Positions 5,736 to 63,697 of a stretch of DNA of 64,000 nt are shown here, one piece after another; position 1 is the first letter of the stretch; each line of letters begins with the position of its first letter. The notes below the pieces were generated by a model. That model searched no databases. It was given only the letters and a program-made list of their open reading frames with translations, and had not been told where the DNA came from. This stretch comes from Candidatus Woesebacteria bacterium. Its GTDB lineage: Bacteria > Patescibacteriota > Microgenomatia > UBA1400 > UBA12028. The DNA is taken from contig JBDTWD010000003.1 of the NCBI GenBank assembly GCA_040006915.1, positions 38,023 through 102,022 of the forward strand, read 5' to 3'. The position numbers were made by a program, and so were the translations under genes.

Positions 5736-5746
5736 GAGTCTGTCAA
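5718..5746 (-). promoter_or_regulatory. sigma70-type promoter of the hrcA operon (-35 TTGACA, 17-nt spacer, -10 TATTAT inside the CIRCE loop)
   Basis: Minus-strand reading: TTGACA (5741-5746) + 17 nt + TATTAT (5718-5723). Classic CIRCE-overlapping arrangement. Confidence 0.55.
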
Positions 5747-9716: not shown

Positions 9717-9717
9717 A

Positions 9718-11924: not shown

Positions 11925-12006
11925 GTCTATAGTATAGTACATCCGGCAACGAAAAGCCCCCCGATGTATCACCGAGGGGCTTCCATTTTTCAAAAACTAT
12001 TTTCCC

Positions 12007-13758: not shown

Positions 13759-14327
13759 ATGTTTTTTGTCTCCTCTATCATCTGATCTATTTTCCCGGAT
13801 TCTAAAAGTGTTTGAATCAATGGTAATAATCTGACCGCATTGGGTGGCATTAAGATCGAGCCGTTTTCTACGCTGGTGATCAAATCAACAATATCAAAGA
13901 ATCTCACTTCTTGTGCTTCAACAGTATTGAATCCAGGAAAAGGCCCTTCGTGCAGACCATAGAACATTGCCCAAAACTCGGACTCATGCACTCCTGGTTG
14001 GAATATTTTCATCCAGTGGGTAAGAGGGACATTCACTCCTAATTCTTCACTGAGTTCACGAACCGCAGTTTTCTCATACGAATCGCCGCTGTTAACATGA
14101 CCTCCCACAGAAAATACCCAGTACCCAGGAAACATATCTTTTGTCATGCTCCGCTTTTGCATCAAAAGATGTTTTTTTTTGTTAAAGATATAGACACCGG
14201 CAGCACGATGAATGAGTTTGGGATCGCTATGTACTTGTTTGCGAGTGGCTGTTCCAAGGACTTCGTCCTCCTCGTTCACAACATCATAGACTTCTTCCTG
14301 ATTATCAGTGGTATTGGGATTGTACAT
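13755..14327 (-). CDS. NUDIX hydrolase
   Basis: Nudix box GGHVNSGDSYEKTAVRELSEELGV. Confidence 0.75.
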   Translation of the reverse strand: MYNPNTTDNQEEVYDVVNEEDEVLGTATRKQVHSDPKLIHRAAGVYIFNKKKHLLMQKRSMTKDMFPGYWVFSVGGHVNSGDSYEKTAVRELSEELGVNVPLTHWMKIFQPGVHESEFWAMFYGLHEGPFPGFNTVEAQEVRFFDIVDLITSVENGSILMPPNAVRLLPLIQTLLESGKIDQMIEETKNI

Positions 14328-14334
14328 ACGACAA

Positions 14335-14673
14335 TTATGCCGCCATTACTTTAGTGATCATTTCACGATATTTCTCTTCTCCACCAAATCCAATTTGACG
14401 ATCTGCTTCGACCATTTCACCTTTCTCATTTTTCTTGAAAGCAACCACAGTCGGAATACTCATAATTCCATAGTTACCGGCAATGTTTGTGGCATCCGTA
14501 TCAACTTTAACGATTTTCACCTTCCCAGCAAATTCGTCTGACAATTTATCGATAATTGGAGCAGCCATCTTGCATGGTCCACACCATTCGGCGTAGAAGT
14601 CCACAATCACTGGAGTCTCTGATTTTAAAACCTGATCTGTAAATTGATCATCGGTTAAGTGTGCTGCTGCCAT
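14335..14673 (-). CDS. trxA: thioredoxin
   Basis: WCGPCK active site, 112 aa. Confidence 0.9.
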   Translation of the reverse strand: MAAAHLTDDQFTDQVLKSETPVIVDFYAEWCGPCKMAAPIIDKLSDEFAGKVKIVKVDTDATNIAGNYGIMSIPTVVAFKKNEKGEMVEADRQIGFGGEEKYREMITKVMAA

Positions 14674-32263: not shown

Positions 32264-32545
32264 CTATGGTAGTTTCACCGTATCGACAAACAAGGTTGTT
32301 CCACTGAATTGACCGGTAACCGTCACATTTTTTCCCACATAGTCATCGAGTTTTACCGTGTAGGAATCTAAATCTCTGGTGACACTACCTGGACTTGCGA
32401 TATAGAATTTCCCTGCGGTTTTAGCGATGGTTCCAGAAACCGTGGTAGTCACCGCTGCCTGGCTGGTCGGCGTCGGTGCTACTGGCTGTTTGCTACAGCC
32501 CACACACAGGCCTGCAATTAAACAGAATAGGAATAGTTTTTTCAT
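32264..32545 (-). CDS. small lipoprotein, hypothetical
   Basis: Lipobox LCVGCS after signal peptide. Consistent with lgt in the window. Confidence 0.45.
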   Translation of the reverse strand: MKKLFLFCLIAGLCVGCSKQPVAPTPTSQAAVTTTVSGTIAKTAGKFYIASPGSVTRDLDSYTVKLDDYVGKNVTVTGQFSGTTLFVDTVKLP

Positions 32546-34203
32546 AGTTGTACCTCCTCTTGTGGTCCAATAACTTCTTCACTGCGAGCCAGTTTGTTTC
32601 TCCAATCTTTCACTCTCCCTTGAATTGAAACCAAAATCGAAAGCTGTTCAACGGAGAACATTGCACACAAGAAAGTATAGACGATTGCTCCTGCCAGCGC
32701 TGCAGCTCCAGTCAGCGCAAATAATCCTAAAACTCGAGTTGTATCAAATACCAGTTGATCGAGGAGTTTCATGACCACGTATAGCGTACCTCCCATCAAA
32801 ATTGCAGAAAGAGCCAGTTTCCCTTGTGGGATAAAGAACTCTTTCCAATAGAAGGTTCGTAACCGATGAAAAAGCGTCACCAGTAACAGTAATACTTCAG
32901 TAAAAGCTGCAATCGTAAATCCAAGTGGAATCGCATGAACTCCCCATCCCAAAACTGCAGTCCCAAGCCACATGACAAAAATATTTATTCCCATGGCGAC
33001 AAGCGCAATAAAGAAAGGAACCTTGGTTTCTTTGAGTGCATAAAATGCTCGTAAAAGAACATGGATCATTGCTACCGCTCCGACTGCAATCGCATAAATC
33101 GCAACCAACTGACCAAGCAATACTGTATCTGTCCAAGGAAACTCTTTGGCGCCATATGCAAGTCGAACAATGGGAATACGTAAAACCAGTAAAAGGGCTC
33201 CGGCAGGATACATGAAAAATGCGATTTGATGTAAGGTTTTAATTAGAAGTTTCACAAAACCAACGATGTCGTGATCTTTGGCTTCGGAAGAGAGAAAAGG
33301 TAAAGCGGCTTGAGCAATTGAAACACCAAAAAAGCGAATCGGAGCTGCGATCAAACTTTGGGCAAAAGTCACGCTGGTAAGCAGTGTGCTTCCAAGTGAA
33401 GTTGCGATATACACCCCCACAAAATCTTCTACCGCATTGGTGGTTTGCGTTGCTCCTCTTGGGAGCATGAGTTTAAATACTTCACGGACGTTACTGTTCT
33501 GAAAATTCCAGCGCAAACGGAATACAAACCCGTACCGAATGGCGAGTGGCAACTGGATAGCGAAATGAACTACAGCTCCGAGGAGTACGCCAATCGTCGG
33601 TCCATAAATTCCCACGATAGGAGAGAAGATCAAGGTGCCGACGATAATTCCCAGGTTGTACAGGATTGGAGAAAGTGCGGGTAAGAGAAAACTTCTATTC
33701 GATTGTAAAATCCCTGACAAAAAATTACTCAGGAGGAAGAAAAACTGGGCTCCCAACATTACCCGCATCAGTTGAGCAGCCAACATCACTTGCTCCACAC
33801 TAAATTCTTTTCCGGTAAAGCTGCGAATTAACGGGACGGCAAATATCCCAGCTATAGTCGCAACAATGATGTAGGCAATTCCTAAAATGGTCATCAAGGT
33901 TTGAACAAATTGATGTTTCTCTTCATCTTGATGCAGAAGACGACTGTAGACAGGGATAAAGGTTGCAGATAAGACGCCTACAACCAGTAATTGAAACAAA
34001 AAGTCAGGAATCCGAAACGCAGCAAAGAATGCGTCCAGTAATGGACGACTTTCTCCGACAAAAACCGAGACCAACAAGCGTTTATAGAGTATCCCCAAAA
34101 CCGCCGAGCACACCGAGAGTGAGCCAATCAACGTCGCTGCCGATAGAATAGAGGTCTGCTCTGAAAACAGAAATGACGCGCTTTTTTTAAGGAGAGAAAC
34201 CAT
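32542..34203 (-). CDS. murJ: lipid II flippase MurJ. Likely start MVSLLKK at 34203; the track ORF extends to 34272.
   Basis: ~14 TM. N-terminal ...SRPLLDAFFAAFRIPDF...SATFIPVYS matches the MurJ/MviN conserved region. Confidence 0.85.
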   Translation of the reverse strand: MVSLLKKSASFLFSEQTSILSAATLIGSLSVCSAVLGILYKRLLVSVFVGESRPLLDAFFAAFRIPDFLFQLLVVGVLSATFIPVYSRLLHQDEEKHQFVQTLMTILGIAYIIVATIAGIFAVPLIRSFTGKEFSVEQVMLAAQLMRVMLGAQFFFLLSNFLSGILQSNRSFLLPALSPILYNLGIIVGTLIFSPIVGIYGPTIGVLLGAVVHFAIQLPLAIRYGFVFRLRWNFQNSNVREVFKLMLPRGATQTTNAVEDFVGVYIATSLGSTLLTSVTFAQSLIAAPIRFFGVSIAQAALPFLSSEAKDHDIVGFVKLLIKTLHQIAFFMYPAGALLLVLRIPIVRLAYGAKEFPWTDTVLLGQLVAIYAIAVGAVAMIHVLLRAFYALKETKVPFFIALVAMGINIFVMWLGTAVLGWGVHAIPLGFTIAAFTEVLLLLVTLFHRLRTFYWKEFFIPQGKLALSAILMGGTLYVVMKLLDQLVFDTTRVLGLFALTGAAALAGAIVYTFLCAMFSVEQLSILVSIQGRVKDWRNKLARSEEVIGPQEEVQL

Positions 34204-34342
34204 GATCAGTATAGGATACTCAATAAACTCCAAATACCAAATACCAAATTTAAAGAGCCTTCTCCTCCTCAAGTGCTTTCCAAAACTCAGGGGGAATGCT
34301 ATACTACTTGTTCAGTAAAACCTAGAAATACACGAAATCCGT

Positions 34343-34582: not shown

Positions 34583-34612
34583 CCTCACTTGTGCCAGTGC
34601 CCCTTTTTTTGC
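34583..34612 (+). terminator. possible weak intrinsic terminator after rpsT
   Basis: Short hairpin (CACT-TGTGCC-AGTG) followed by CCCC + a 7-T run. The stem is only 4 bp. Confidence 0.3.
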
Positions 34613-35260
34613 TACGCTGTTACCATGGCGTACAAACCGCAAACTCTTGTTATTCCAAAAATTAACCTTATTCCCCGGGATCCGTTCTATGAAACGACGA
34701 TTGGGAAGATTATGGTCTGGGCGATCCAAGTGGGTCGATACATCATCATTTTTACCGAAATTATTGTTATCATGAGCTTTGCTTCCCGCTTTAAGCTCGA
34801 TCGCGATCTGACAGATCTTACGGCCAAAGTCACACAGAAAAAAGCGATTGTCGAGTCATTTGGTGATATTGAAGCTCGTACTCGTACCATCCAAGATAAA
34901 ATTGCGACAACTCAAAAACTCCTTGCCGACGGAACAGCTATGTTTTATCTGGACAAAGTCACAGCCAGAATCCCGTCTGGAATCGAATTAACTCAACTTA
35001 CTCTTGATCCTGGTACCCTTACTTTTTCAGGAAAAGCTGTAAATTCGAACGTTCTGGCTGCCATGATCGTGGCGTTGCAGCAAGAGCCAGCCTTCACCAG
35101 TGTCTCTGTCGACAAGATCTCTTCAGGACAAGCAAATGATCCAAACGTTTCATTCGCAATTAAACTCACTATTCCACAGAAAGCAGTGGAAGCGAAAGTT
35201 GAAGATGGCAGTACACCAACAACTCCGCCCACATCACCTGATACACCAGTAACACCATAG
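34589..35260 (+). CDS. pilN: type IV pilus assembly protein PilN
   Basis: N-terminal INLIPRD (the PilM-binding INLLP motif), single TM, coiled-coil plus ferredoxin-like periplasmic domain, Pro/Thr C-terminal tail. Confidence 0.7.
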   Translation: MCQCPFFCYAVTMAYKPQTLVIPKINLIPRDPFYETTIGKIMVWAIQVGRYIIIFTEIIVIMSFASRFKLDRDLTDLTAKVTQKKAIVESFGDIEARTRTIQDKIATTQKLLADGTAMFYLDKVTARIPSGIELTQLTLDPGTLTFSGKAVNSNVLAAMIVALQQEPAFTSVSVDKISSGQANDPNVSFAIKLTIPQKAVEAKVEDGSTPTTPPTSPDTPVTP

Positions 35261-35264
35261 ATCT

Positions 35265-35924
35265 ATGCCAATCCAAAGACCATCACTACAACGAACTATT
35301 ATCCAGATGGATTTAAACCGCTTTTATGACAAGCCAGTCACCCGAGTATCTGTGGCATTAGTGCTTTCTCTACTCGCTATTGCTTTTTTCGCACTGGCTG
35401 CGATACGCCCGACTCTACAAACTATGGCAGAGTTATTAAAAGAAATTGATCAGAAAAAAACCTTAGATGAGAAATTGACGCAAAAAATTACGGCACTTAC
35501 TAGTGCTCAACGTCAACTCTCAGAAAAGGAAGCACTATTCCCTGTACTCTCGATCGCAATCCCCTCTAATCCAAACTTTGCTCAGCTCATGACAGTGATC
35601 GAAAAATTAGCAACGGAACGCCAAGTTGAATTTTCTTCGGCACAAATCCAAAAAGTTCCGCTTGAAGGCAAACCACCAAGCGCAACGGCAAAGTATCAAC
35701 TAGTTAGTTATCCTATGACACTTGCCTTCTCGGGATCATATGAGAATTTGATTCTACTCATGCGTGATCTTCAGTCCATTAAACGAATCATTGCAATTGA
35801 TCGATTTGATATTTCTCCTGCGGTACAAAGTGCCCCTACGGAGTTAACCCTTACCCTCGCAATTCGCGCATTCTCGTTTAATCAATTACAAGGAGCTGCT
35901 CCGGCACCGGTGCCTGTTCCGTAA
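35265..35924 (+). CDS. pilO: type IV pilus assembly protein PilO-like
   Basis: Single TM, coiled-coil (KKTLDEKLTQKITALTSAQRQLSEKE), periplasmic domain, Ala/Pro C-terminus, immediately after pilN. Confidence 0.6.
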   Translation: MPIQRPSLQRTIIQMDLNRFYDKPVTRVSVALVLSLLAIAFFALAAIRPTLQTMAELLKEIDQKKTLDEKLTQKITALTSAQRQLSEKEALFPVLSIAIPSNPNFAQLMTVIEKLATERQVEFSSAQIQKVPLEGKPPSATAKYQLVSYPMTLAFSGSYENLILLMRDLQSIKRIIAIDRFDISPAVQSAPTELTLTLAIRAFSFNQLQGAAPAPVPVP

Positions 35925-35931
35925 AATCAGT

Positions 35932-36318
35932 ATGAAAAAAAGATTAACATTTAAACAACTCCTCTTTGAACAACAGATACTGGGAATTTTGCTCTTTTCT
36001 GTATTAGTTGTGTTTTTGTGGGTAGTATCGACTATTTATTTTTCCTACACCAAATCTACACTTACCAGTGAAGATGAAACGGTTGTTATCCCTCTGAGTC
36101 CTATTATTGATGATCGCCCACTACAAGTTTTAAGTAGCCGACGCTGGTGGAGTGACAGTGATCTACAAAGCTTTGCAGTCAGTGTCGTGATACGTGACAG
36201 TAACGGAAAAACGACGACTTCTCAAACCCAAACAGGAGCAGCTTCACCATCTGCTACCCTTGCGCCCACTCCTGTCCCCACACCACTTCCAGCCTCTGGT
36301 TCTGCCCAAACGCAGTAA
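35932..36318 (+). CDS. membrane-anchored protein with Thr/Pro-rich C-terminus (PilP-position, hypothetical)
   Basis: N-terminal TM, small domain, PT-rich tail. 8-nt gap after pilO. Confidence 0.4.
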   Translation: MKKRLTFKQLLFEQQILGILLFSVLVVFLWVVSTIYFSYTKSTLTSEDETVVIPLSPIIDDRPLQVLSSRRWWSDSDLQSFAVSVVIRDSNGKTTTSQTQTGAASPSATLAPTPVPTPLPASGSAQTQ

Positions 36319-36365
36319 GTGTATGGTACTTGTAGTGCAATTAGTGAGCATGATAGCGTAGTACT

Positions 36366-37682
36366 ATGGCCCAATCGTTTCTTTCGACCAAAAGAATTCC
36401 CACCATTGTTGGTATTGTGATTTTGAGTGCTGGCTTGATCGGAGGAATCTTCTTAGCTAACTCTGTTACTACGGGCTTTCTTCCGAGAGCTTCCCCCGAG
36501 TCAACTCCAAAGAACTTAAAAATCACCAATGTCACCGATACCAGTTTTACTGTTTCTTGGGTAACCGATAGCAAGACAACCGGCTACGTAAAGTATGGCC
36601 CCAGCAGTAGTTCAATTAGCAGTGTTACTACTGATGATCGAGATCAAATTGGTGGTAGTGTTGGCCAATTTAAAACACATCATGTTACCCTTCGGGGATT
36701 AACTGCATCCACAACCTATTTCTATAAAATCGGTACTGGTACCAGCGAACTATACGACGATAGTGGCAAACCTTATCAAACAAAAACCACCGTTCCAATC
36801 ACCTCACCTGCAAAAACCTTGTACGGAGAAGTTCTTTCCAGTGATACAACCGGAGCCACTGGCGCCTTAATTTATATTAGTGGAGATTCAATTGCCCCAC
36901 TCTCTACCATTACGCAAAGTGGTGGAAGTTTTGCCTTATCACTAGCGATCGCCCGAGCGAAAGACGGTGTTAGCAGTGCCACTTTTACGGATGACACCAA
37001 GATTTCATTGCTCGTCATTAGTCCGATAGATGATACGACTAGTGTAATCGATGCAACGATTTCTCAAGGTCAGCCCTTCCCTGATATTGTATTAGGTAAG
37101 AATCAAAATCTCACAAGTCCCACACAAACACCCCAACCAGAAGCAGAAAATACTTCCGCTCCAACGCAAAGCAAGTTTACCAGTCAATTACTCTCAGCTC
37201 CGGTCGAGATTCCCGCGTCAGTCAGTGCCAACTTTCTTTCAATAAGTGCACCAACTGATCAATTTGTTTCAACTGTTGCTCGTCCAGTCTTAAGTGGTAC
37301 AGCTTCAAAAAGCGCAACCGTTTCGTTAGCTCTTAAAGGACCATCTACGTTAACAACGAGCACGAAAGCGACTGCAACGGGTGCATGGACATACACACCA
37401 GTAACGAGCTTGAAAAATGGCGCCTATACTCTTACAGCTAGTACCACAATCAGTGGAAAGAAAGAAACACAAAACGTTTCTTTCTCCATTTTGGTCCCCA
37501 CGCCTACGCCCAAAACCAGCACTGCTTCTGCAGTTTTAGGACTGCCATCCACTGAATCAGCAGATTTGGTATCCGGATCCACTGAAATCACCATTTCTTT
37601 TGCTCTCGCTGGTTTGTTATTTATCGGTTCTGGAGCTTTTTTCGCCACAATTCAGTCAAGTGATCACAAAAAAAGAAAATAG
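36366..37682 (+). CDS. surface protein with fibronectin type III-like domain, Ser/Thr-rich regions and C-terminal TM + basic tail
   Basis: NLKITNVTDTSFTVSWVTDS...YVKYG...TTYFYKIG is an FN3/PAP-N-like motif pattern. C-terminal ...TEITISFALAGLLFIGSGAFFATIQSSDHKKRK. Confidence 0.55.
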   Translation: MAQSFLSTKRIPTIVGIVILSAGLIGGIFLANSVTTGFLPRASPESTPKNLKITNVTDTSFTVSWVTDSKTTGYVKYGPSSSSISSVTTDDRDQIGGSVGQFKTHHVTLRGLTASTTYFYKIGTGTSELYDDSGKPYQTKTTVPITSPAKTLYGEVLSSDTTGATGALIYISGDSIAPLSTITQSGGSFALSLAIARAKDGVSSATFTDDTKISLLVISPIDDTTSVIDATISQGQPFPDIVLGKNQNLTSPTQTPQPEAENTSAPTQSKFTSQLLSAPVEIPASVSANFLSISAPTDQFVSTVARPVLSGTASKSATVSLALKGPSTLTTSTKATATGAWTYTPVTSLKNGAYTLTASTTISGKKETQNVSFSILVPTPTPKTSTASAVLGLPSTESADLVSGSTEITISFALAGLLFIGSGAFFATIQSSDHKKRK

Positions 37683-37727
37683 CATCTTGAGATTAGTTGA
37701 AAAGTTAGTTACTGTAGATATTGCATC

Positions 37728-39923
37728 ATGTCAGACGATCAAAAAACACCACCACCATCGCCACTCTCATCCACACAAGGAACTGCAAATTTGGATGATG
37801 TGCTGTCATCGTTGGAAAAACAGTTACCACAAGATTCAGCTACACCAGCGCCTGTTGACCCAGTCTCACCACCTAGTCCAACCCCACCTGTTACCCCTCC
37901 CGAGCCAATGCCTCCACTTACACCTGTAGAAGAAAAACCTGTTGAGCCAGTACCTCCGGTAATTCCACCTGCTCCAGAGCCAATGGCTTCAGCAGCCTCT
38001 ACCCCGACTCCACCGCCAGTTCCAACTTCTTCATCATTTGGTATTGAAGAAAACCACATTGAACCAGTAGCCACACCGGTTCCGGTAGCTACTCCTGAAC
38101 AAAGTCCCGTACTAACTGAAACGCTCAGAGAGCACCCTATGGTTGCGACGCAAACAACAACGACAACTGCTCCTCCTCCAAGAAAAAAAGGATTATTTGG
38201 AATTGATCCTAAGCTTATTGTGGGTGCTGCCGTTGTTTTCATTTTGGCAATTGGATCTGTTGCTGCATATTTGACAATTGGAGCACCAGCAGGTTCTTTG
38301 GATACGAGAAATCAAGCTTCCGGATGTAGTATTGTCTACAATCAAAACACTTTTACACTTACAAATTGTGTGGGATCTGGAACTATCACAAGGTTTAATG
38401 GACCGTCATGTCCAACAACACAGAATAAAGTAAGTGAGGTTCCTGCAACCGATGGTACTATTTCGCCTCAGCCGCCAGCAGGTCAATGTCAACAGGTCGA
38501 TCATAATTTTGGCGGAAATGGACCAGACGGGCTTCCAATTGGGGCTGGTGGAGTCTGTTCCTGTAATAGCGCTCCTTCCCCTACTCCTCAACCACGTGCT
38601 TGTGGTGAAGCATGTACCACAACAGCAAACTGCCGTAACCCAAGTACTGGAGGCTTTCCAGTTGAATGTCGCAACGGCAAATGTCAACTTCCCTTGACTG
38701 GTCCATACGCTTGTCCGGAAGGACAGTCTTCAGGTTCAATTTGTACCTGTGCAGCCAAAGTTCAATGTGGACAGCAATGTGGCCCTGCAGCTGGAGGGAA
38801 GTTGTGTAACCCTGGCAGTGTCTGCGGATTCTTGACTCCTTCAAACGCGTGCAAAGTGAACGGCGTTGATCAAAGTACAAAACAATACTGTATCCCTGTC
38901 AATCCAAATGGTGGATATAGCTCCAAGCGCTGTGACACCACTCCGGCAATCAACTATATTGCTGCTGACTCTTTGGTAAAACCAGACGGAACACAAACAA
39001 ACTTAACCGCTGCGGATGCAGTAGTTGCATGTACCCCAGTCTGTGGAGATAAGATTGTAGCTGGAAATGAAGAGTGTGATGCTGGAAGTGAAAATGGAAA
39101 GCCAGGATCAACTTGTGATGCAACGTGCAAAATGCGCAACGTCTGTGGCGACACTTGCTCTGCCGCTAGTGAATGCAATAAGCATTACGTTACCTTGCGA
39201 TGTAGTGTAGGCGCAACTGGAACAACCGAACGATACTGTGGATTAGATGCAATCGTTGAAAACGGAGTCACCATTGAAGAGAATAGTACCCGCTTCATCA
39301 AACCAGGAATGTGGAGAATCTCAAGTACTGCAGCTTTGAGTGGTGGATCTGAAATATACGACCACGAACAAGGTGCCACAATCTCCTTCTGGACCTCAGC
39401 AACAAATGTAACTCTCGTCTATACCAAAGCTTCAAATCGTGGAACCTTTAATATCCTTGTCGACGGAAAGCAGCAATCGGCAACTATCAATCAAAATGGG
39501 ACAACCACACAATACAAGCAAAATGCACTTATTACGGTTCGAGATGCCAGTATTCCTGAATATGTCTGCACCTCAAATACTTGCCGCCTGTCAACCAGCC
39601 CTGAGAGTCCGACCTGTGATGGGAATATTCCTTCTCCATCACCAACTCCATCGGCTCCACCACTCGCCTGTCTCCGTATTTCCTCTGATAATCCAACTCC
39701 AGTATTGGGAAGCCAAGTGCGATTCACTTGTGGCCTCGTCACTGGTGTTGATCGCTATGAATTCCGCTACAAGATGACATTCAATGGAGTTGATGGAGCT
39801 GGTGGAACACTCGCTGCAACTAATAATTTGTCTGCTCCTCTTACTGTTGATCAACCTGGAGATTATAAAGCACAGTGTCGGCCATGTGTTGGTCAGGCAT
39901 GTGCACCTTGGCAGAATTGGTAA
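37728..39923 (+). CDS. large bitopic Cys-rich protein: Pro-rich N-terminal ~165 aa, one TM, ~540-aa Cys-rich ectodomain including a myxo-type CGD..EECD repeat
   Basis: PPPSP/PVTPPEPMPPLTP N-terminus. TM LIVGAAVVFILAIGSVAAYLTIG. More than 50 Cys. CGDKIVAGNEECDAGSENG matches the myxococcal cysteine-rich repeat pattern. ACGEACTTTANC...C resembles the 8-Cys module. Confidence 0.55.
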   Translation: MSDDQKTPPPSPLSSTQGTANLDDVLSSLEKQLPQDSATPAPVDPVSPPSPTPPVTPPEPMPPLTPVEEKPVEPVPPVIPPAPEPMASAASTPTPPPVPTSSSFGIEENHIEPVATPVPVATPEQSPVLTETLREHPMVATQTTTTTAPPPRKKGLFGIDPKLIVGAAVVFILAIGSVAAYLTIGAPAGSLDTRNQASGCSIVYNQNTFTLTNCVGSGTITRFNGPSCPTTQNKVSEVPATDGTISPQPPAGQCQQVDHNFGGNGPDGLPIGAGGVCSCNSAPSPTPQPRACGEACTTTANCRNPSTGGFPVECRNGKCQLPLTGPYACPEGQSSGSICTCAAKVQCGQQCGPAAGGKLCNPGSVCGFLTPSNACKVNGVDQSTKQYCIPVNPNGGYSSKRCDTTPAINYIAADSLVKPDGTQTNLTAADAVVACTPVCGDKIVAGNEECDAGSENGKPGSTCDATCKMRNVCGDTCSAASECNKHYVTLRCSVGATGTTERYCGLDAIVENGVTIEENSTRFIKPGMWRISSTAALSGGSEIYDHEQGATISFWTSATNVTLVYTKASNRGTFNILVDGKQQSATINQNGTTTQYKQNALITVRDASIPEYVCTSNTCRLSTSPESPTCDGNIPSPSPTPSAPPLACLRISSDNPTPVLGSQVRFTCGLVTGVDRYEFRYKMTFNGVDGAGGTLAATNNLSAPLTVDQPGDYKAQCRPCVGQACAPWQNW

Positions 39924-39925
39924 CT

Positions 39926-40735
39926 ATGAAAAATCGAAAGTCTATCATCGCTGGTTTCATACTTTTTGTCCTAGTAGTGGCTGCTATTGGAGTGGTGATT
40001 ATCACTCGCCGAACTTCAGGAACACAATCTGTTGCTCCAACAGCTCCACAATCACAGCCAGCAGCAACATCTTGTACCCTTTCCTTTACGGTCGAAGGGA
40101 CACCTGGCCCTTCTGAAAGTCCAACCCCAACCCCTTCTGCATCACCGACAGCAAGCCCAAGTCCAACTCCAACCGCTACTCCTGTTGCTCAATGTAACAG
40201 TACTTGTGCGTCCGATAGTGACTGTCCTGCATCTATGACTTGTTCTAGTGGAACGTGTCGTAATCCAGCGTGTACAGACTCAGACAGCTGTGTATGTGCG
40301 ACTGCAACACCTGCTCCTACACCAACACCGACCCCAGGACCATCGTGTAACAGTGAATGCACCACCAATGATCAATGTCCGTCAAACTTAATCTGTGCTT
40401 CAGGTCGCTGCAGAATGCCAGGCTGCACTGCTCTGGATAGCTGTACTTGTGGACCAACCTGTAACTCAACCTGTACAACCAACTCTGACTGTCCAAGTGA
40501 TCTGATCTGTGCCTCGAATCAATGTCGCCGACCTGGATGTACAGCTCTGGATACGTGTTCATGTGGTACACCTGGACCAACAGCTACCCCTACAACTCCA
40601 CCAGTTGTGGTCCAAAGCACGCCTGTACCACAGGAAGTCCTTCCAGTCGCAGGTTCTTCCCTCCCAACAGCAGGGTTAGTAGGAACTGGGATCATCACTA
40701 TCATCATCGGAATCCTAGGGCTACTAGCACTCTAA
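39926..40735 (+). CDS. Cys-rich repeat surface protein with C-terminal LPTAG + TM sorting signal (start MKNRKS at 39926, 2 nt after the upstream gene)
   Basis: N-terminal TM/signal, PT-rich linker, three tandem 8-Cys modules, ...EVLPVAGSSLPTAG-LVGTGIITIIIGILGLLAL. Confidence 0.6.
   Translation: MKNRKSIIAGFILFVLVVAAIGVVIITRRTSGTQSVAPTAPQSQPAATSCTLSFTVEGTPGPSESPTPTPSASPTASPSPTPTATPVAQCNSTCASDSDCPASMTCSSGTCRNPACTDSDSCVCATATPAPTPTPTPGPSCNSECTTNDQCPSNLICASGRCRMPGCTALDSCTCGPTCNSTCTTNSDCPSDLICASNQCRRPGCTALDTCSCGTPGPTATPTTPPVVVQSTPVPQEVLPVAGSSLPTAGLVGTGIITIIIGILGLLAL
40193..40564 (+). repeat. three tandem copies of a ~35-aa 8-Cys module (CNSxCxxxxDCPSxLICASxxCRxPxCTALDSCxCG) encoded in-frame
   Basis: R1 AQCNSTCASDSDCPASMTCSSGTCRNPACTDSDSCVC. 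R2 PSCNSECTTNDQCPSNLICASGRCRMPGCTALDSCTCG. R3 PTCNSTCTTNSDCPSDLICASNQCRRPGCTALDTCSCG. Confidence 0.7.
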
Positions 40736-43829: not shown

Positions 43830-46163
43830 TTAAAGCTTCGCTCGAACGGCTGTTTCTTGTTCCACAATATCTCGTGGACGACCGTATTTAATCCTTGAGA
43901 GCTCACGAATGAGTTCAGCGCGTTTGGGATCCATCAGTTTCTTCTCCCCTTCAATATCGCGCGTTAAGTCCATGCTAAATGGAGGAACAGGCTCGTTGTT
44001 CACAATGGTTTTGATGTAGACGTGATATTTTTCAATATTGGTTAAATCTGTTTCAGAAAATGTTGGCGCAAATTCATGTTGCAGAAAATTTGCATCCGGA
44101 ACACCAACACGGAAAGTTACCATCGAGCCAACGTTGCCAAAGACCGCGTTCTTTACGTCTTCTTCGATCTGAGCCACAAACTGGTTGGCAACAATCAAAT
44201 TTAGTCGGTACTTACGAGCTTCAGAAAGAATGGTAGCGAAATCTTCAGTTGCATAGTTTTGGAACTCATCGACGTAGAGATAGAAATCTCGACGCTGCTC
44301 CATCGGCATATCTTGACGACTCATGGCAGCCGTTAAAATCTTTGGCACCAAAATCAAACCTAAGAACTTGGCATCCTCTTCTCCCAATTTTCCTTTGGAT
44401 AAATTGACCAAGAGAATCTTTCCTTCATCCATAACCTGGCGGAAATTAAAAGCGCTTTGACTTTGGCCAATAATGTTTCGCATTACCTTATTGGTAATGA
44501 ATTTGCCAAATTTCGAAACGATGTAGTCTAGAACTTCAGACTTATGGAAATCACTCGTCTGGGCAATCTGGTCCGTCCAGTAGCGACGCACAACCGGATC
44601 TTTCACTTTCGGAAGCAGTTCCTGCACATACTTTTGATCAGTCAAACAGCGCACGAGTTCAATAAAAGTAGCCCCTGGTTCAGCCATAATAGTTAACATG
44701 GCGTTACGAATGGCATGCTCAAATCGTGGACCGATGATACCGGTTTTGTGTGGATCGTAGAGCTTGTACATTAACGCGATAATTGATCCCACCACAAAAT
44801 GCATCTGTTCTTCGGTCTGCGCTTCCATAATATTTAAACCCATCGGTCGTTCAGTATCAGATGGATTAAAGTAAATAACTTCTTCAGCTCGTTCTGGAGG
44901 GATAAGCTGCATGATATCTTCGACCAACTCTCCATGTGGATCCAAAACTGCCATCCCTTTTCCAGCTCTGATATCCTGCAAAATCATATCTTTTAAGAAT
45001 TCTGATTTTCCGGTACCAGTCTTTCCGACAATATACATGTGACGTTGACGATCTTTTTCCTCAATAAAGATCTCTTTCTTTGTCCCTCGATAATTACTTG
45101 AACCTAAGCGCATTCCAGAAGTTGCGATACTGGCCGGAGCCGGAGCCGACTTAGCTTTAAGCCAATTAATGTGGTGGGTTTCAACCGTTTTATTAGGGAA
45201 ATGCAGAATTGTAGACATCTCTTCAGAATTTAAAACAAATGCCCCGCGATCAAATAACGGCATGTAGCGATAAATGAAATCGACCATGAATAATTGCTTG
45301 AACAAAATTCTCGATCGCTTAAAGCTATTCGTTGGACTACTAAACTGAGCAAAAGCACCAAGAATGTTAGTTAAGTGAGAATTAGCCCTCCTGGCATCAA
45401 TTGATGAGACCACAACACGCAGAGCTACTTTAAATCCTGGTTTGGAAGCTTTGGTCTCAATGGCATCCAGTTTTTTAGGGTCATGATTATAGGAAGCTTT
45501 TTGTGGATCAGATTCTTTTTTCTTCGTATCGGCAACATACTTGCTTCCAGCTCGCTGCCATCCGGGACCAGCGGGCTCTAACACAAATTGCACAATTGCC
45601 CCCTCACCTTCATCCATTTTCGAAAGCGCTGAACTTAAGAGTGATAGTCCATCAGTGGGAAGATCTTTATATACTTTAATTGGTAGATACGTTTGACTGG
45701 CTAGAGTCAAAGCTGCAAACGCAACTTTGCCACCTTCTGAGAAAATATTGTATTCTTCCGCCTCTTCAATCTCTGCAGATGGATAGGCTCCATAAATTTG
45801 TTTTTCAATCAAATCAGTTAACTCCGCTGGAACCGTAACGTAAAAGGCAATGCTTTCGTGTAACGCCACAATTTCAAACGTAAAGTGATCTTCAGGTTTA
45901 AGAATTGATCCCACTCCTTCATTTTTTAAACTGTATAAACCGGCAAACATCTGTTCAGCTGCATCAATTTTTATTTCGTTCTCTTTAGGTAACAATACTT
46001 TGAGAACCTTAAAGCCAAGTGAGTATTTTTCTCTCCCACGGAATCGAAACCATTGGACAACCATATAGACGAGCCCTGCTCCGAAGATCAACGGGATCGC
46101 AAACAAGGCCAGGCTTGTGAGAATTTGGGTAACGACAATTGCAATATCAGTGGTTGGATCCAT
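43830..46163 (-). CDS. VirD4/TraG/TraD-family type IV coupling protein-like membrane ATPase
   Basis: Two N-terminal TM helices, Walker A YIVGKTGTGKSEF, Walker B FYLYVDEFQNY, C-terminal ...SEARKYRLNLIVANQFVAQIEE (TraG-D_C-like). Confidence 0.65.
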   Translation of the reverse strand: MDPTTDIAIVVTQILTSLALFAIPLIFGAGLVYMVVQWFRFRGREKYSLGFKVLKVLLPKENEIKIDAAEQMFAGLYSLKNEGVGSILKPEDHFTFEIVALHESIAFYVTVPAELTDLIEKQIYGAYPSAEIEEAEEYNIFSEGGKVAFAALTLASQTYLPIKVYKDLPTDGLSLLSSALSKMDEGEGAIVQFVLEPAGPGWQRAGSKYVADTKKKESDPQKASYNHDPKKLDAIETKASKPGFKVALRVVVSSIDARRANSHLTNILGAFAQFSSPTNSFKRSRILFKQLFMVDFIYRYMPLFDRGAFVLNSEEMSTILHFPNKTVETHHINWLKAKSAPAPASIATSGMRLGSSNYRGTKKEIFIEEKDRQRHMYIVGKTGTGKSEFLKDMILQDIRAGKGMAVLDPHGELVEDIMQLIPPERAEEVIYFNPSDTERPMGLNIMEAQTEEQMHFVVGSIIALMYKLYDPHKTGIIGPRFEHAIRNAMLTIMAEPGATFIELVRCLTDQKYVQELLPKVKDPVVRRYWTDQIAQTSDFHKSEVLDYIVSKFGKFITNKVMRNIIGQSQSAFNFRQVMDEGKILLVNLSKGKLGEEDAKFLGLILVPKILTAAMSRQDMPMEQRRDFYLYVDEFQNYATEDFATILSEARKYRLNLIVANQFVAQIEEDVKNAVFGNVGSMVTFRVGVPDANFLQHEFAPTFSETDLTNIEKYHVYIKTIVNNEPVPPFSMDLTRDIEGEKKLMDPKRAELIRELSRIKYGRPRDIVEQETAVRAKL

Positions 46164-51090: not shown

Positions 51091-51903
51091 ATGAATAAAA
51101 GAGTTCTCATCGGTTTGATTCTCATCATCACAGTTATAGTGGGAATTGGACTCGCTGTCAGTTTATACCTCTCAAGTCAGACGCAAGAGAATCGAAATCA
51201 AGCCTGGACCACAACGCAATCAGCCAACAGTACCTGTGGCGTTGATGGAAAAGCGGTCATCGTCGTCACGTTTTCAAATACAGAACCTGCGAATACTCCT
51301 GCAGACGACATGACTGTCTCTGCTACAGATACCCAGAGCAATCAAAGTGTCAGTATTGGATTAGTCAAAGGTGGGGAAACACTTTCAGCCTCAATTTTGA
51401 CAGGATTTGCTTCGCTAGCGGCTGGAAACGTCCAGCTCCGTCTGACTTGGGCAAATGGAAGAGCAGGAACGGATACTCGAACTGCAAGTTACGGTGCGGT
51501 CTCAACTTGTCTAGTTGCTACCCCCTCCCCAACCCCTGAGATAACCCCTGTTCCCTCACCCACTCCCGAGGTAACACCTAGTCCTACACCAATAACGACA
51601 TCAACTCCTCAGCCAACCAGTACACCGACTAATACTCCTCCCCCCACCTCAGGACCAAGTTGTAACTCACAATGCACCGTCAACACCGATTGTCCCTCAG
51701 ACTTAATCTGTGCATCAAACCAATGTCGCAGACCTGGATGTACTGCCCTTGACTCCTGCAACTGTGGAACACCGGCACCGGCGACACCCACCTCAACTCC
51801 ACAGATATTACCAGTCGCAGGTGGAAGTGGACCGACACTATTTATTCTCACAGCTGGGATGTTTATTCTCATTCTTGGAGTCCTGGGTTTTACGAGACTG
51901 TGA
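51091..51903 (+). CDS. Cys-rich module surface protein with PT-rich linker and C-terminal LPVAGG + TM sorting signal
   Basis: N-terminal TM. TPSPTPEITPVPSPTPEVTPSPTP linker. One 8-Cys module PSCNSQCTVNTDCPSDLICASNQCRRPGCTALDSCNCG (module at 51661-51765). ...QILPVAGGSGPTLFILTAGMFILILGVLGFTRL. Confidence 0.6.
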   Translation: MNKRVLIGLILIITVIVGIGLAVSLYLSSQTQENRNQAWTTTQSANSTCGVDGKAVIVVTFSNTEPANTPADDMTVSATDTQSNQSVSIGLVKGGETLSASILTGFASLAAGNVQLRLTWANGRAGTDTRTASYGAVSTCLVATPSPTPEITPVPSPTPEVTPSPTPITTSTPQPTSTPTNTPPPTSGPSCNSQCTVNTDCPSDLICASNQCRRPGCTALDSCNCGTPAPATPTSTPQILPVAGGSGPTLFILTAGMFILILGVLGFTRL

Positions 51904-53027: not shown

Positions 53028-53660
53028 CTATTTTGCTAATAGCGCATCTACAGTGGATTTCAAATCATTTACGTCGGTTGCGACGTTATTTACGTAAAAG
53101 GTTGGAGTCGCATTGACTCCAAGAGTATTGGCATCGGTTTGATCAGCTGTGATCCTCGCTTCTACTTCTGGACTCACGCGATCTTTCTTAAATTTCTCTA
53201 CATCAAGTTTTAAATCTTTTGCGTACCCATCAAACTTAGAAGTTGGGTCAGCATCCTCTTCCCACTCTGATTGGGTTTCAAACAATTTGTCATGCATCTC
53301 CCAAAATTTTCCTTGATTAGCAGCTGCTTCAGCAACTTTGGACGCCGCATACGCATTTTTATGAACAGTAGTGAGTGGATAGTGACGATACACCAATCGC
53401 ACGCTCTCTGTAGCTGTCTGAGTAATCAAATCAACTAACGGTTGTGCAGCTTTACAGGCCGGACACTGGAGATCGGAAAATTCAACGATCGTGACTTTGG
53501 CATCCTCTTTCCCTTTGCTGTTTTTGGTTTGTCCTAACACTACTTTCGAATCAACTGGAGCAACCGGAGCATTCGCTTTTTTGGTAAACAAAAATGCAAC
53601 CGCAACTACGGCAATACATGTAACAGCGAGTGAACCTAAAAGGAGCCAAAGATTTTTCAT
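53028..53660 (-). CDS. DsbA-like thiol:disulfide oxidoreductase (second paralog)
   Basis: N-terminal TM/signal. CPAC active site (FSDLQCPACKAAQPL). Confidence 0.75.
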   Translation of the reverse strand: MKNLWLLLGSLAVTCIAVVAVAFLFTKKANAPVAPVDSKVVLGQTKNSKGKEDAKVTIVEFSDLQCPACKAAQPLVDLITQTATESVRLVYRHYPLTTVHKNAYAASKVAEAAANQGKFWEMHDKLFETQSEWEEDADPTSKFDGYAKDLKLDVEKFKKDRVSPEVEARITADQTDANTLGVNATPTFYVNNVATDVNDLKSTVDALLAK

Positions 53661-60630: not shown

Positions 60631-61116
60631 CTATTCTAGAAACCCTTCCACAATCATATCTTCAGCAAGTTTCTGTGGGATTCCCCGGCTTTCTAGATAA
60701 AACAAATGTTCTTCAGGAATCCTTGAGATACTCGCAGCGTGAGAACATTTCACATCATCAGTCTTGATTTCGAGTTCGGGAATGGCTTCAGCTTTGGCCT
60801 TGTCAGACAGTAATAAAATTCGTTCCTCTAAAAATGACTGGGTGTCTCCACAGTCTTCCTCGATAATGATCCGACCAAAAAACCGAATATGGCTCTTGTC
60901 TTCTGCTACTCCCTTGAGTATCGTTTTGGCTCGCGTGTGAGGAGCTTTATGCACAATCGTTAAGTTAATGTTTATGTCATCATCATTTTTTCCGTGAAAC
61001 ATTCCTACGATTGATATTTCATCTCCAGGATTAAGAATTTCGACTCGATAGTCACCTGATTTGGTCAAGGTAATGTTTTTCATATTAGCCAACTGACCCT
61101 TCCATCTCATGATCAA
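60631..61116 (-). CDS. sufD: SufD-like protein, short form (161 aa, C-terminal SufBD domain only). TTG/alternative start likely.
   Basis: ...ILLLSDKAKAEAIPELEIKTDDVKCSHAASISRIPEEHLFYLESRGIP matches the SufB/SufD C-terminal signature (LEI..DDVKCSHGAT). Confidence 0.7.
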   Translation of the reverse strand: MIMRWKGQLANMKNITLTKSGDYRVEILNPGDEISIVGMFHGKNDDDININLTIVHKAPHTRAKTILKGVAEDKSHIRFFGRIIIEEDCGDTQSFLEERILLLSDKAKAEAIPELEIKTDDVKCSHAASISRIPEEHLFYLESRGIPQKLAEDMIVEGFLE

Positions 61117-63697
61117 TCAATCGATTCATTTCAATTGCATACTCAAGTGGGAGCTTTTTCACAAGATCATTGACGAATCCATTCACAATCATTTTACGAC
61201 TATCTTCTTCCGTTACACCACGACTCATCAAATAAAATAGTTGCTCATCACCAATGCGACTCACTGTAGCTTCATGTTGGATCTCGACCTGATCATTCAT
61301 AATCCGATCAGTGGGATACGTGTCGGAACGTGATTTTCCATCCAAAAGCATGGCATCACACACCACCGTATTTTTACTATGATGCGCCTGGGGTGACACC
61401 ATCACCATTCCCCGGTAACTAGTACGTCCGCCATCTTTACTAATGGATTTAGAAATAATAGTTGAGCTCGTATATGGAGCTAAATGCATTGCTTTGCTTC
61501 CAGTATCTTGATGTTGCCCGGCTCCTGCTAAGGCCATTGATAATGTTTCTCCCTTGGCACCCTTTCCTACTAACAAGAAAGATGGATATTTCATGGTGAG
61601 TTTGGAACCCATGTTAAAGTCTGTCCATACCATTGTTGCTTCTTCCTCAACACGAGCACGTTTAGTGACCAAGTTATAGACATTTTTGTACCAATTCTGG
61701 ATAGTTGTGTACTGACATCTAGCTCCTTTTTTCACGAAAATCTCAACCACTGCAGAATGCAGTGATCCGGAGGAAAATGCCGGAGCGGTACAATTATGAA
61801 CGGCAACTCCCCCTGCTACATAGCTTTCGTCATCTCGAACACTAAAGTTATAGACTGGCAAATTTTTTACAGTTTTTCTTTCAATTGAACGAATAGGAAC
61901 GTACATATACTTTTCATCGATATGATAAAAAGTAGCTCGTTTTTTATTATGTAATCGGTCTTCTACTTTCTCTTCTGCAATTTTTGCAAAATCTGATAGG
62001 TACTGTCCGCCGATCACACACACATACATTGTCTTTCTCCCTTCATACGATCTGCTTTGCCAATTTAAGCTCGATGCGATGTTGAGACGCAAAAGTATTT
62101 GTCGTGCTTGTGAAGCAAGTGTTTTTGAGGTCGTACACAGACGAAATACTTCTTTTAATCCATGTTTATGAGTTTTTTTGTAATAGTTCCCATCACCTCT
62201 ATACCACCCTAACAGCAACTGCTTCTGTTTTTCTAAAGACTCTTTCATCATCCAAAGTGGAATTTTTTTTTCGTCACACTTTGTTCCGAACTGTTTAAAT
62301 AATCGACACAATCTTGTAGAAGAAACTACGACAGAAGTTCCGTGGTTCGTTTTATGTGTTTGCTCACTAATTCTGTTCTCGTCAAAAACAATCCTAATAA
62401 GCTTTTTTACATCATCAATATATTCTCTCTCATTACTGTTAAATGAAAAATTCAGATAATGTCCACTACTAATACTCCCCTCTGCCAGATAATATCCAAC
62501 TAACCGAAAGAAATCCTCTGTAGAAGGGATTGACACTTCTTCAAGAAAGGGGCCATGTCTTCCGGCACCACGTAATACTGGAAAACGAACAGTTTTGTTT
62601 TTGAAAATCTCTCTATCTATAGGAATACAAGCATAGTCGTATTTGGAAATATTTTTTGTTTCTGTCCATGAAGGAATCCATTTACTGTTTCTTTCATTTT
62701 TTCTCTGTCTCTTCACTATAAGAAAAGGATGCTCTTGTGTTGTCTCTATTTTCTCTTTTGGAGAACCAACAAGTTCTATCGTATAGAGGTCTCCAGAATA
62801 CGGCCGTACCTGCGTGTAATACACCTCTTTGTAACGTCCTTCATGTGTTAGAACTAAATCTCCCTTCTCAATTGACTCAATTGCCGCTTCACCCATATCG
62901 GTTTGAATGCGTGTCCCCGCAGTGAAACAGCCCTCCACGTAGTGAACACTCGCTCCTTCATCCACTATGATCAACGTGCGTTCAAATTGACCTGCATTTG
63001 GAGAATTAATACGAAAATACGCTTGGAGAGGCATCTTCACATCCAACCCCTTGGGTACATACACAAACGATCCCCCCGACCAAACAGCAGTATTGAGGGC
63101 CGCAAATTTATTATCTCCGGACGGAATATTTTTGCCAAAGTATTCTTTGATGAGATCAGGATATTGTTTTAGGCCCTCATCCATTGACAAAAAGATTACT
63201 CCTTGTTCCTCCCAGATGTTTTGCAGAGATCCATAGACCACTTCACTATCGTATTGGGCTTTCACACCAGCCAGAACATCTCGTTCTGCCTGAGGAATTC
63301 CCAACTTATCAAAAGTTGCTTTCACGTCAGCCGGAACATCATTCCAAGACTCAACAGACTTATCTGTCGGTTTTAAGTAGTAATGAATTTTATCGTAATC
63401 GATTTCCGACAATACTCCTCCCCAGGTTGGGGTTTGCATGCCTTCAAATATCTCCAAGGCTTTGAGACGGATCTCTAGCATCCACTCTGGTTCCTCTTTA
63501 ATGTGTGAGAGTTCTTCTACTACTCGTTTGGACAATCCAGGTTTAGAAATAAAACTATATTTGTCAGTTGGATACGAAAACCCTGCCGTATATGTCGAGT
63601 CGACTACGGAGTCATCAAACTGCGTCGTATGTTTGTTTGCAAATCTGGACATAATTATAAAACTGAAAGCAGTGTTTTCACTCTCGTTTCTTAGCAC
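61085..63697 (-). CDS. sufB: Fe-S cluster assembly protein SufB interrupted by an in-frame intein (870-aa precursor; ~491-aa mature SufB)
   Basis: N-extein ...LIIVDEGASVHYVEG | C-extein CTAPAFSSGSLHSAVVEI...VVCDAMLLDG...FYLMSRG. Host sequence is SufB-like at both ends. Confidence 0.9.
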   Translation of the reverse strand: MLRNESENTAFSFIIMSRFANKHTTQFDDSVVDSTYTAGFSYPTDKYSFISKPGLSKRVVEELSHIKEEPEWMLEIRLKALEIFEGMQTPTWGGVLSEIDYDKIHYYLKPTDKSVESWNDVPADVKATFDKLGIPQAERDVLAGVKAQYDSEVVYGSLQNIWEEQGVIFLSMDEGLKQYPDLIKEYFGKNIPSGDNKFAALNTAVWSGGSFVYVPKGLDVKMPLQAYFRINSPNAGQFERTLIIVDEGASVHYVEGCFTAGTRIQTDMGEAAIESIEKGDLVLTHEGRYKEVYYTQVRPYSGDLYTIELVGSPKEKIETTQEHPFLIVKRQRKNERNSKWIPSWTETKNISKYDYACIPIDREIFKNKTVRFPVLRGAGRHGPFLEEVSIPSTEDFFRLVGYYLAEGSISSGHYLNFSFNSNEREYIDDVKKLIRIVFDENRISEQTHKTNHGTSVVVSSTRLCRLFKQFGTKCDEKKIPLWMMKESLEKQKQLLLGWYRGDGNYYKKTHKHGLKEVFRLCTTSKTLASQARQILLRLNIASSLNWQSRSYEGRKTMYVCVIGGQYLSDFAKIAEEKVEDRLHNKKRATFYHIDEKYMYVPIRSIERKTVKNLPVYNFSVRDDESYVAGGVAVHNCTAPAFSSGSLHSAVVEIFVKKGARCQYTTIQNWYKNVYNLVTKRARVEEEATMVWTDFNMGSKLTMKYPSFLLVGKGAKGETLSMALAGAGQHQDTGSKAMHLAPYTSSTIISKSISKDGGRTSYRGMVMVSPQAHHSKNTVVCDAMLLDGKSRSDTYPTDRIMNDQVEIQHEATVSRIGDEQLFYLMSRGVTEEDSRKMIVNGFVNDLVKKLPLEYAIEMNRLIDHEMEGSVG
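61793..62929 (-). mobile_element. intein (~379 aa) with LAGLIDADG-type homing endonuclease domain inside sufB
   Basis: Begins CFTAGTRI (Cys1) after host ...YVEG. Ends ...GGVAVHN followed by +1 Cys of host CTAP. Internal LVGYYLAEGS and LLGWYRGDGN are LAGLIDADG-like blocks. Confidence 0.8.

Follow-up and report, generated by a model that had tools for sequence, protein, structure and literature searches.

A tail-less LPxxG tag at the C-termini of Woesebacteria-type proteins as a candidate sortase-type sorting signal

Results

A Conserved Tag without a Charged Tail

In a 64-kb stretch of DNA from a Candidatus Woesebacteria bacterium (contig JBDTWD010000003.1; this whole stretch is called the window below), two proteins, proteins 1 and 2, close with the same tag, which judged by sequence has the form [L/I/V]-P-x-[A>S>T]-G-x3-P-T followed by a hydrophobic, Gly-rich helix of some 19 residues with which the protein ends. 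We read this tag, LPVAG in both proteins, as a sortase-type (LPXTG) wall-anchoring signal, a new tail-less variant that is specific to Woesebacteria-type Microgenomates and would be processed by an enzyme encoded elsewhere in the genome, and put the probability of this reading at roughly 0.55. It is favored because the L, P, and G are fixed, position 4 is small and grades into T, the linkers are PT-rich, the tag is modular, and LPXTG anchors are the only known signals that it resembles. It is favored also because a canonical SPKTG follows the same passenger module in the same genome and because sortases are reported to be ubiquitous in the group.

The original prediction had picked out three proteins in which a short motif precedes a hydrophobic segment and a C-terminal tail, and all three C-termini are present exactly where it had placed them. 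Up to the stop codon, they read QEVLPVAGSSLPTAGLVGTGIITIIIGILGLLAL in protein 1, QILPVAGGSGPTLFILTAGMFILILGVLGFTRL in protein 2, and HSPKTGFETWLVAGGAIALFGVGSVLGINEKVFATRKLSPRELVKRRQSSST in protein 3. An LPXTG-like pentapeptide is thus found near the C-terminus and a hydrophobic segment follows it; the stretches after the motif measure 18–21 residues, with Kyte–Doolittle maxima of 2.0–2.6 over 17 residues, and the motif of the tag sits 5 residues before the Gly-rich helix. Every carrier has a basic and hydrophobic N-terminal segment; in proteins 1 and 2, this segment spans at least 20 residues and could be an anchor that is not cleaved. For protein 1, LPTAG had been proposed as the motif, but an alignment of 55 homologues puts the conserved pentapeptide at LPVAG; we reject LPTAG as the functional pentapeptide because in this register it is the stretch holding the conserved PT. 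The minimal tail had been called atypical for a sortase A substrate, which is right but understated, as the tail-less form is a conserved variant found across the lineage. Positively charged C-terminal tails are present only in protein 3, which carries SPKTG, and in protein 4, an FN3 protein ending in KKRK.

The 55 homologues of protein 1, found by full-length similarity, nearly all have the same type of ending, and the L of LPxxG stands exactly 29 residues from the last residue in 35 of them. A profile was built from 33 tails of 31 residues and searched against 1.84 billion representative proteins; it matched 212 proteins at E ≤ 1e-3 (best match 57 bits, E 1e-10), and among the matches listed, 150 of 150 extend to within a few residues of the C-terminus, nearly all of them to the final residue. 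In a set of 194 tails, 164 have L at position 1, position 4 is A in 94, S in 69, T in 23, and V in 7 (84% A or S, 12% T), and PT stands at +4/+5 after the G in 171. The P and G are fixed in these 194 tails by the selection pattern; independent alignments of the tails likewise show both as invariant. In 174 of the 194 tails, LP stands 29 amino acids (aa) from the end, a figure that is partly circular because the profile itself was built from 29-aa tails. K, R, D, and E are absent from the last 20 aa of 191 tails, and the small residues of the helix are conserved at fixed positions (GxGxG...G-S). A genome scan with a narrower tail alignment (LPQSGTDW) gave 10 loci, eight with the tail-less tag and seven of these in the same operon (see below); scans of viral contigs for the tag and for sortase found neither.

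To estimate the chance expectation, we applied the pattern [LIV]P.[AST]G.{2,4}[PT][TS].{16,23}$ to the 324 stop-to-stop open reading frames (ORFs) of the window. Proteins 1 and 2 were the sole matches, in comparison with 0.015 matches expected per window when the final 40 residues of each of the 113 ORFs with at least 100 aa were shuffled. A dedicated model for the tag is absent from Pfam and NCBIfam release 20, and we found no prior description of the tag, or of sortase motifs in the candidate phyla radiation (CPR) or Microgenomates, in the searchable literature.

Carriers of the Tag and a Canonical Signal in the Same Genome

The tag occurs on at least six unrelated passenger architectures. 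These include the Cys-module family of protein 1, FN3 proteins, Cys-free proteins, proteins with ordinary cleavable-looking signal peptides, a class that has a cytoplasmic extension at the N-terminus and bears the tag as IPVTG/IPETG, and a further family carrying ELPEAGFALPTFG; tiny carriers of 76–100 aa have nothing besides a signal peptide, a PT linker, and the tag. Its fixed register on unrelated passengers argues for a sorting signal and not a family-specific tail. Carriers outside the operon described below are protein 2, P0179, which adjoins DAGK/PAP2, and P0107. Most carriers have a long N-terminal hydrophobic anchor, and the signatures found after the N-terminal hydrophobic segment are RLYQLRQxxVAPxAPxSxPxA in class A and RQxQ[D/E]IRxKA in other classes, so that with the C-terminal tag both ends of the precursor are marked. 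LPXTG proteins are likewise accompanied by special N-terminal signal-peptide motifs, YSIRK and KxYKxGKxW, although their sequences are unrelated to the signatures found here.

Judged by its sequence, protein 3 carries a canonical signal, SPKTG, which is kept in the query and in both homologues found; its C-terminal tail of 23 aa is of mixed charge and net basic. Proteins 1, 2, and 3 have in common a 35-residue module of eight cysteines (C-x3-C-x6-C-x6-C-x4-C-x4-C-x5-C-x-C) that passes the threshold of PF21164, the DPY module of Drosophila Dumpy (38.1 bits for protein 1 against a cutoff of 27). The shared module makes this a paralogous passenger domain, yet one followed by two kinds of C-terminal signal. 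We considered a recent duplication behind the similarity of proteins 1 and 2 and rejected it, the C-terminal DNA being ~78% identical with many synonymous differences. Proteins 2 and 3 are identical to two entries of a Candidatus Woesebacteria metagenome-assembled genome (ABI758_02955 and ABI758_02690, contig of 142,872 bp), and this confirms that the window derives from an ultra-small CPR bacterium. Protein 4 had been described as having a transmembrane segment and a KKRK tail after a noncanonical LPSTE. The tail and the letters are indeed there; as a motif, however, LPSTE appears incomplete. Orthologues in the operons of relatives end in [I/V]PVTG-xLTPT-helix-WKxAEN, a third version of the tag, and the alignment suggests that the motif is split here by a 7-residue insertion (LP-STESADL-VSG, 37542–37580), LPSTE probably being one half of a disabled motif.

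Comparison with Known Sorting Signals

We scanned NCBIfam and Pfam with the full proteins and with sets of 10 and 90 isolated tails. LPXTG anchors were the only known models to recur among the 90 tails: TIGR01167 matched 34 at E ≤ 1 (best E 0.0029), PF00746 (Gram_pos_anchor) matched 35 at E ≤ 1 (best E 6.6e-4), and EF0750_LPXTG matched 13. The resemblance is weak, with most scores under the curated cutoffs; the LPVAG tails of proteins 1 and 2 gave no match to TIGR01167 or PF00746, and the SPKTG tail of protein 3 stays below the TIGR01167 cutoff (12.3 against 15.9). That cutoff is narrowly passed by two relatives (16.2 and 16.9), and both align to positions 1–28 of 34, that is, to the model minus its basic tail. 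The PEP-CTERM, PGF-CTERM, GlyGly-CTERM, and MYXO-CTERM models gave no recurrent match among the tails scanned; Firmicu_CTERM and PVV_CTERM each matched one of the 90 tails, with E-values of 0.015 to 0.53.

L, P, and G are the conserved positions of the canonical LPXTG motif. Like the Gram-positive signal, the tag is a modular L-P-G pentapeptide placed after Pro/Thr-rich linkers and shortly before a C-terminal Gly-rich helix; it differs in having no basic tail, mostly A or S at position 4, an additional PT at +4/+5, and a length of 29 residues. Its T-containing versions (IPVTG, IPETG, and LPQTG) keep the same format of PT and helix and grade into the canonical sortase motif. The signals of exosortases, archaeosortases, and rhombosortases are similar in combining a short motif with a helix at the extreme C-terminus and in being modular and lineage-specific, but their motifs are different, and the PEP-, PGF-, and GlyGly-CTERM signals carry a basic tail. 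In eukaryotes, the attachment signals of glycosylphosphatidylinositol (GPI) have small residues at the point of cleavage, then a short polar spacer, then a hydrophobic stretch reaching the C-terminus without a cytoplasmic tail. The tag is like them in shape, an analogy and not a homology, whereas its LP-x-x-G core is sortase-like. We know of no bacteria with GPI machinery.

Variation at position 4 has precedents: some surface proteins of staphylococci carry LPXAG or LPXSG (PMC7137321). Sortase signals are defined in part by their positively charged tail, which is regarded as essential for keeping the protein in the membrane (PMC4591827). The motif of protein 3 is identical to a proven one: SPKTG (CD3246) and PPKTG (CD2831) are experimentally proven sites of sortase B (SrtB) in Clostridioides difficile (PMC4591827). 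Protein 3 is like these substrates also in its signal peptide and in the helix and basic tail after the motif; unlike them, it has a long tail (23 aa) of mixed charge, and its host is a CPR bacterium.

Search for the Processing Enzyme

The original prediction had stated that the window holds no sortase gene, and all of our searches agree. PF04203, exosortase, and rhomboid families were absent from Pfam scans of 58 window ORFs, the TLxTC signature occurs in no real ORF of the window, Staphylococcus aureus SrtA found no match there by phmmer, and a hidden Markov model (HMM) of 120 CPR sortases scored window ORFs at 8.4 bits at best. We therefore rejected a divergent sortase among the unannotated ORFs of the window, for which NCBIfam likewise gave no sorting-enzyme match. 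No sortase was found within ±10 kb of 8 tag-bearing genes, and the exosortase, rhomboid, and CPBP families were absent from the window ORFs scanned and from the Pfam lists of eight neighborhoods. The proposal of sortase or exosortase-type processing thus divides: matches to LPXTG models and the proven SPKTG motif lend support to the sortase part, while the exosortase part is left with neither a model match nor an enzyme in the window.

CPR sortases were gathered with three consensus-like probes that we composed from known sortase motifs, the evidence being the matches and not the probes. The probes gave 6613 matches; the best 120 all contain PF04203, and are mostly 180–250 aa long; the CPR proteins measure 225–247 aa and have one N-terminal helix. 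The sequences are intact, with TGHSS for the His, LTLMTCxPxGT for the Cys, and an invariant Arg. Few of the CPR sortases come with an organism name (CPR3, Berkelbacteria, and Parcubacteria), and two of these three are termed "class D sortase." Among solved structures, the closest to them is 4D70 (E 1.7e-14), a "sortase family protein" that we take to be Clostridium perfringens SrtD. The CPR family, with its conserved His, Cys, and Arg, is the candidate for the processing enzyme, although its gene lies neither in the window nor near the tag-bearing genes searched. A PF04203 family with a median length of 231 aa and one helix has been described from 1020 CPR in comparison with 12 non-CPR genomes and called "near ubiquitous in Microgenomates" (PMC6744442), and the length, helix, and PF04203 domain of our sortases fit that family.

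Around the sampled CPR sortases, only two sorting signals were seen, both of the classical tailed type (PPITG...KKRK and LPNTG...RK). The single LepA among the sampled sortase loci is only 47% identical to that of the window, and because of this the loci probably belong to other CPR lineages. We take the absence of the tag from these sortase loci to show that CPR sortases are "housekeeping" enzymes unlinked to the proteins they process and that tailed signals are in use in other CPR. Several side observations concern the sortases themselves. In 39 of 84 full-length CPR class-D-like sortases, [LIVF]P falls within the last seven residues (as in ILPLY, LLPLE, and ILPGR), and these ends could be a pseudo-substrate tail. 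In loci L021 and L022, the sortase gene has a gene for a PEGA or PEGA-like protein within ~1 kb, and genes of GT4 and WecG glycosyltransferases follow within ~5 kb; in several metagenomic sortase loci, a GT4 gene follows a few kilobases downstream.

The Operon with PilN-like and PilO-like Genes

The gene of protein 1 is the last of six in an operon (34589–40735) that begins with PilN-like and PilO-like genes and continues with the genes of a small one-helix protein, the FN3/Big_13 protein, and a Pro-rich and Cys-rich protein; MurJ lies divergently upstream (Table 1). The same gene order is found in at least 12 loci, including an 834-kb JGI contig and loci L003–L014, and the operon-bearing loci include Woesebacteria GW2011_GWB1_39_10 and the complete Woesebacteria chromosome CP066686.1. 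The best-conserved carriers of the tag are products of this operon. Relatives with the Pro-rich and Cys-rich architecture (class B) bear IPVTG/IPETG tags, and several operon products are tagged in relatives; PilM, pilin, and ATPase genes are not adjacent.

Table 1. Coordinates of tag carriers, their elements, and associated genes in the window
Feature	Position	Strand	Remarks
PilN-like gene	34589-35260	+	PF05137, 42.9 bits (gathering cutoff 22.8)
PilO-like gene	35265-35924	+	PF04350, 46.9 bits (gathering cutoff 22)
Small protein, 128 aa, one N-terminal helix	35932-36318	+	Conserved operon position; no known-family match
Protein 4, FN3 / Pur_ac_phosph_N + Big_13 operon protein	36366-37682	+	LPSTE 37542-37556, helix, KKRK tail
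731-aa operon protein with Pro-rich N-terminus, one helix, Cys-rich ectodomain	37728-39923	+	This copy without C-terminal signal
Protein 1 (target), 269 aa	39926-40735	+	Anchor, VAPTAP, PT-rich linkers, three 8-Cys modules, tail-less LPVAG signal
Protein 1, N-terminal hydrophobic signal/anchor (residues 7-27)	39944-40006	+	Preceded by basic MKNRKS; signature kept in family
Protein 1, juxtamembrane VAPTAP	40031-40048	+	Kept in class-A family as VAPxAPxSxPxA
Protein 1, three 35-residue 8-Cys modules	40193-40297, 40346-40450, 40460-40564	+	Dumpy_DPY PF21164
Protein 1, LPVAG	40640-40654	+	Homologous to family LPx[A/S/T]G; predicted cleavage between A and G
Protein 1, LPTAG	40661-40675	+	Overlaps conserved PT (40664-40669) after the true pentapeptide
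Protein 1, C-terminal hydrophobic helix AGLVGTGIITIIIGILGLLAL	40670-40732	+	Reaches last residue; no charged tail
Protein 2, second carrier, 270 aa, identical to NCBI ABI758_02955	51091-51903	+	N-terminal anchor, one 8-Cys module
Protein 2, 8-Cys module	51661-51765	+	
Protein 2, LPVAG	51808-51822	+	
Protein 2, PT	51832-51837	+	
Protein 2, helix	51838-51891	+	Followed by tail TRL
Protein 3, 155 aa, identical to NCBI ABI758_02690	5743-6210	-	Cleavable-looking signal peptide (predicted between VYA and Q), canonical-type SPKTG
Protein 3, 8-Cys module	6034-6138	-	
Protein 3, SPKTG	5884-5898	-	
Protein 3, helix	5815-5871	-	
Protein 3, tail	5746-5814	-	
DsbA-like thiol-disulfide oxidoreductases	12007-12756, 53028-53660	-	

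In relatives, a glycosyltransferase gene of the PMT family (protein O-mannosyltransferase-like) is convergent with the target gene (L003 10888–13179, L005 11022–13511, and L006 10578–12983), and LCP and FemAB genes lie near; in the window, the PMT-family gene is absent from that position flanking the operon. The proximity of a PMT-family gene suggests that the PT-rich linkers are O-glycosylated. The two DsbA-like enzymes of the window are plausible oxidants of the Cys-rich ectodomains, and together with the PMT, LCP, and FemAB context they would fit proteins that are oxidized, possibly glycosylated, and wall-associated. Thioredoxin reductase and thioredoxin genes (12826–14673, minus strand) lie alongside the DsbA-like genes, one of which is two genes from that of protein 2.

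In most of the examined relatives whose sequence covers that flank (L003–L010, L013, and L014), a DnaJ–DnaK–GrpE–HrcA block abuts the MurJ–PilN operon. In the window (998–6210 versus 32542–34272), this block is 26 kb away from the operon, and the gene of the SPKTG protein comes directly after HrcA. The MurJ–PilN operon of the named Woesebacteria occurs also in L007, L008, L009, and L011, which are third-party-assembled metagenome-assembled genomes titled "uncultured Gammaproteobacteria" or "Alphaproteobacteria"; HrcA is upstream in these four where the flank is present, DnaK too in L007 and L009, and the titles are probably wrong.

Three further loci lie in other parts of the window. SufB (61085–63697, minus strand) is interrupted by an intein with Hint_2, Intein_splicing, and LAGLIDADG_3 domains, and a second SufBD gene follows at 60631–61116. 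A cluster at 7697–11993 encodes two ATP-grasp enzymes, a MATCAP-like protein of the tyrosine carboxypeptidase family, and a 7TM_transglut membrane protein, and looks like a peptide-modification cassette. A TrwB/DUF87-type coupling ATPase of 777 aa (43830–46163, minus strand) has the same relative position in the 834-kb relative.

Discussion

Both the processing steps and a sortase gene in this genome are inferred, as follows. The precursors would be exported by Sec via the N-terminal hydrophobic segment, their 8-Cys modules oxidized by the DsbA-like enzymes, and their PT-rich linkers possibly O-glycosylated, while the C-terminal helix would keep them membrane-bound. The cut, between position 4 (A, S, or T) and the G, would then be made by a membrane-anchored class-D-like CPR sortase with its gene in another part of the genome; this enzyme would transfer the protein to a peptidoglycan precursor, leaving the G-xxx-PT-helix remnant in the membrane. 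As most carriers have an N-terminal anchor, the products could serve as tethers between membrane and wall. The envelope context fits wall anchoring by a sortase, with MurJ in the window and LCP, FemAB, and PMT genes beside the operon in relatives.

Several observations weigh against a sortase. The positively charged C-terminal tail is missing, with no tail in protein 1, only TRL in protein 2, and uncharged ends in 191 of the 194 relatives, and position 4 is mostly A or S and not T. The two LPVAG tails of the window have no TIGR01167 match at all. Neither the 64-kb window nor a further 314 kb of related loci, for the most part from around relatives, yielded a sortase (378 kb in total); conversely, the tail-less tag is absent from 80 metagenomic CPR sortase loci (711 kb) and from L021, L022, and L103, and the sortase and the tag were not found together in any locus searched.

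The missing charged tail and the lack of a linked sortase in the loci searched would be expected if the C-terminus were an uncleaved membrane anchor. The LPxxG-x3-PT would then be a structural or partner-binding juxtamembrane element of bitopic proteins with both ends in the membrane, for example, a turn by which the Gly-rich helix docks to a PilN/PilO platform or to the helix at the N-terminus of the same protein. The fixed small residues GxGxG...G-S are of the kind seen in helix packing, the best-conserved carriers share an operon with the membrane proteins PilN and PilO, and an N-terminal helix is also present in most carriers. However, the tag is found on unrelated proteins outside the operon (protein 2, P0179, and P0107) as well as on proteins whose signal peptides look cleavable and on tiny ones that have no further domain, and such varied carriers make a specific intramolecular or operon-restricted partner improbable. 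A plain anchor, moreover, needs no near-invariant L-P-x-small-G, and the motif specifically resembles LPXTG anchors. We consider an uncleaved anchor unlikely.

Reading of the tag by a sorting enzyme other than a sortase, a transamidase or intramembrane protease in the manner of archaeosortase, rhombosortase, or GPI transamidase that attaches the protein to a lipid, glycan, or S-layer, appears distinctly unlikely to us. By analogy only, the shape of the tag is closer to eukaryotic GPI-attachment signals than to Gram-positive ones; none of the surroundings of 83 CPR sortase genes contained a tail-less tag, the two signals found there being classical tailed xPxTG, and the coexistence of the tailed SPKTG and the tail-less form in the lineage could mean two systems. 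Yet the window and the neighborhoods examined contain no exosortase, rhomboid, or CPBP candidate, the tails show no resemblance to the PEP-, PGF-, GlyGly-, or MYXO-CTERM models, and the IPVTG, IPETG, and LPQTG versions grade into the canonical sortase motif. A bolder and doubtful proposal is that the tail-less LPx[A/S]G-x3-PT marks a separate sorting system of Woesebacteria/Microgenomates, read by a specialized sortase or a nonsortase transamidase. Such a system might covalently fix the products of the PilN/PilO operon (FN3 and Cys-rich DPY-like proteins, many of them keeping their N-terminal anchor) to the wall, a lipid, or the S-layer, as membrane-to-wall tethers or as a fiber at the base of a pilus machine. 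Finally, short motifs abound and the background is raised by PT/AG-rich linkers, so one may ask if ordinary hydrophobic C-termini are preceded by LPxxG by chance. The probability of this is practically nil: two matches against 0.015 expected, profile matches of up to 57 bits, and the fixed C-terminal register refute it.

Should a sortase-type signal be the correct reading, sortase substrates in a group known for its sortases are as such unsurprising, and the interest lies in the tail-less format, the link to the operon, and the identity of the reading enzyme. If the tag works without a tail, the textbook rule that a tail is required for sortase sorting needs to be qualified; if a sortase does not read it, the tag points to a new sorting enzyme. 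The CPR make up a large share of bacterial diversity, and how their envelope is built and how their surface proteins are fixed to it are largely obscure. The tag provides a sharply defined, searchable C-terminal signature, described by a profile and a fixed register and found on more than 200 representative carriers. It allows listing the probable surface-anchored proteome of Woesebacteria-type genomes and ties the conserved PilN–PilO operon to that surface proteome.

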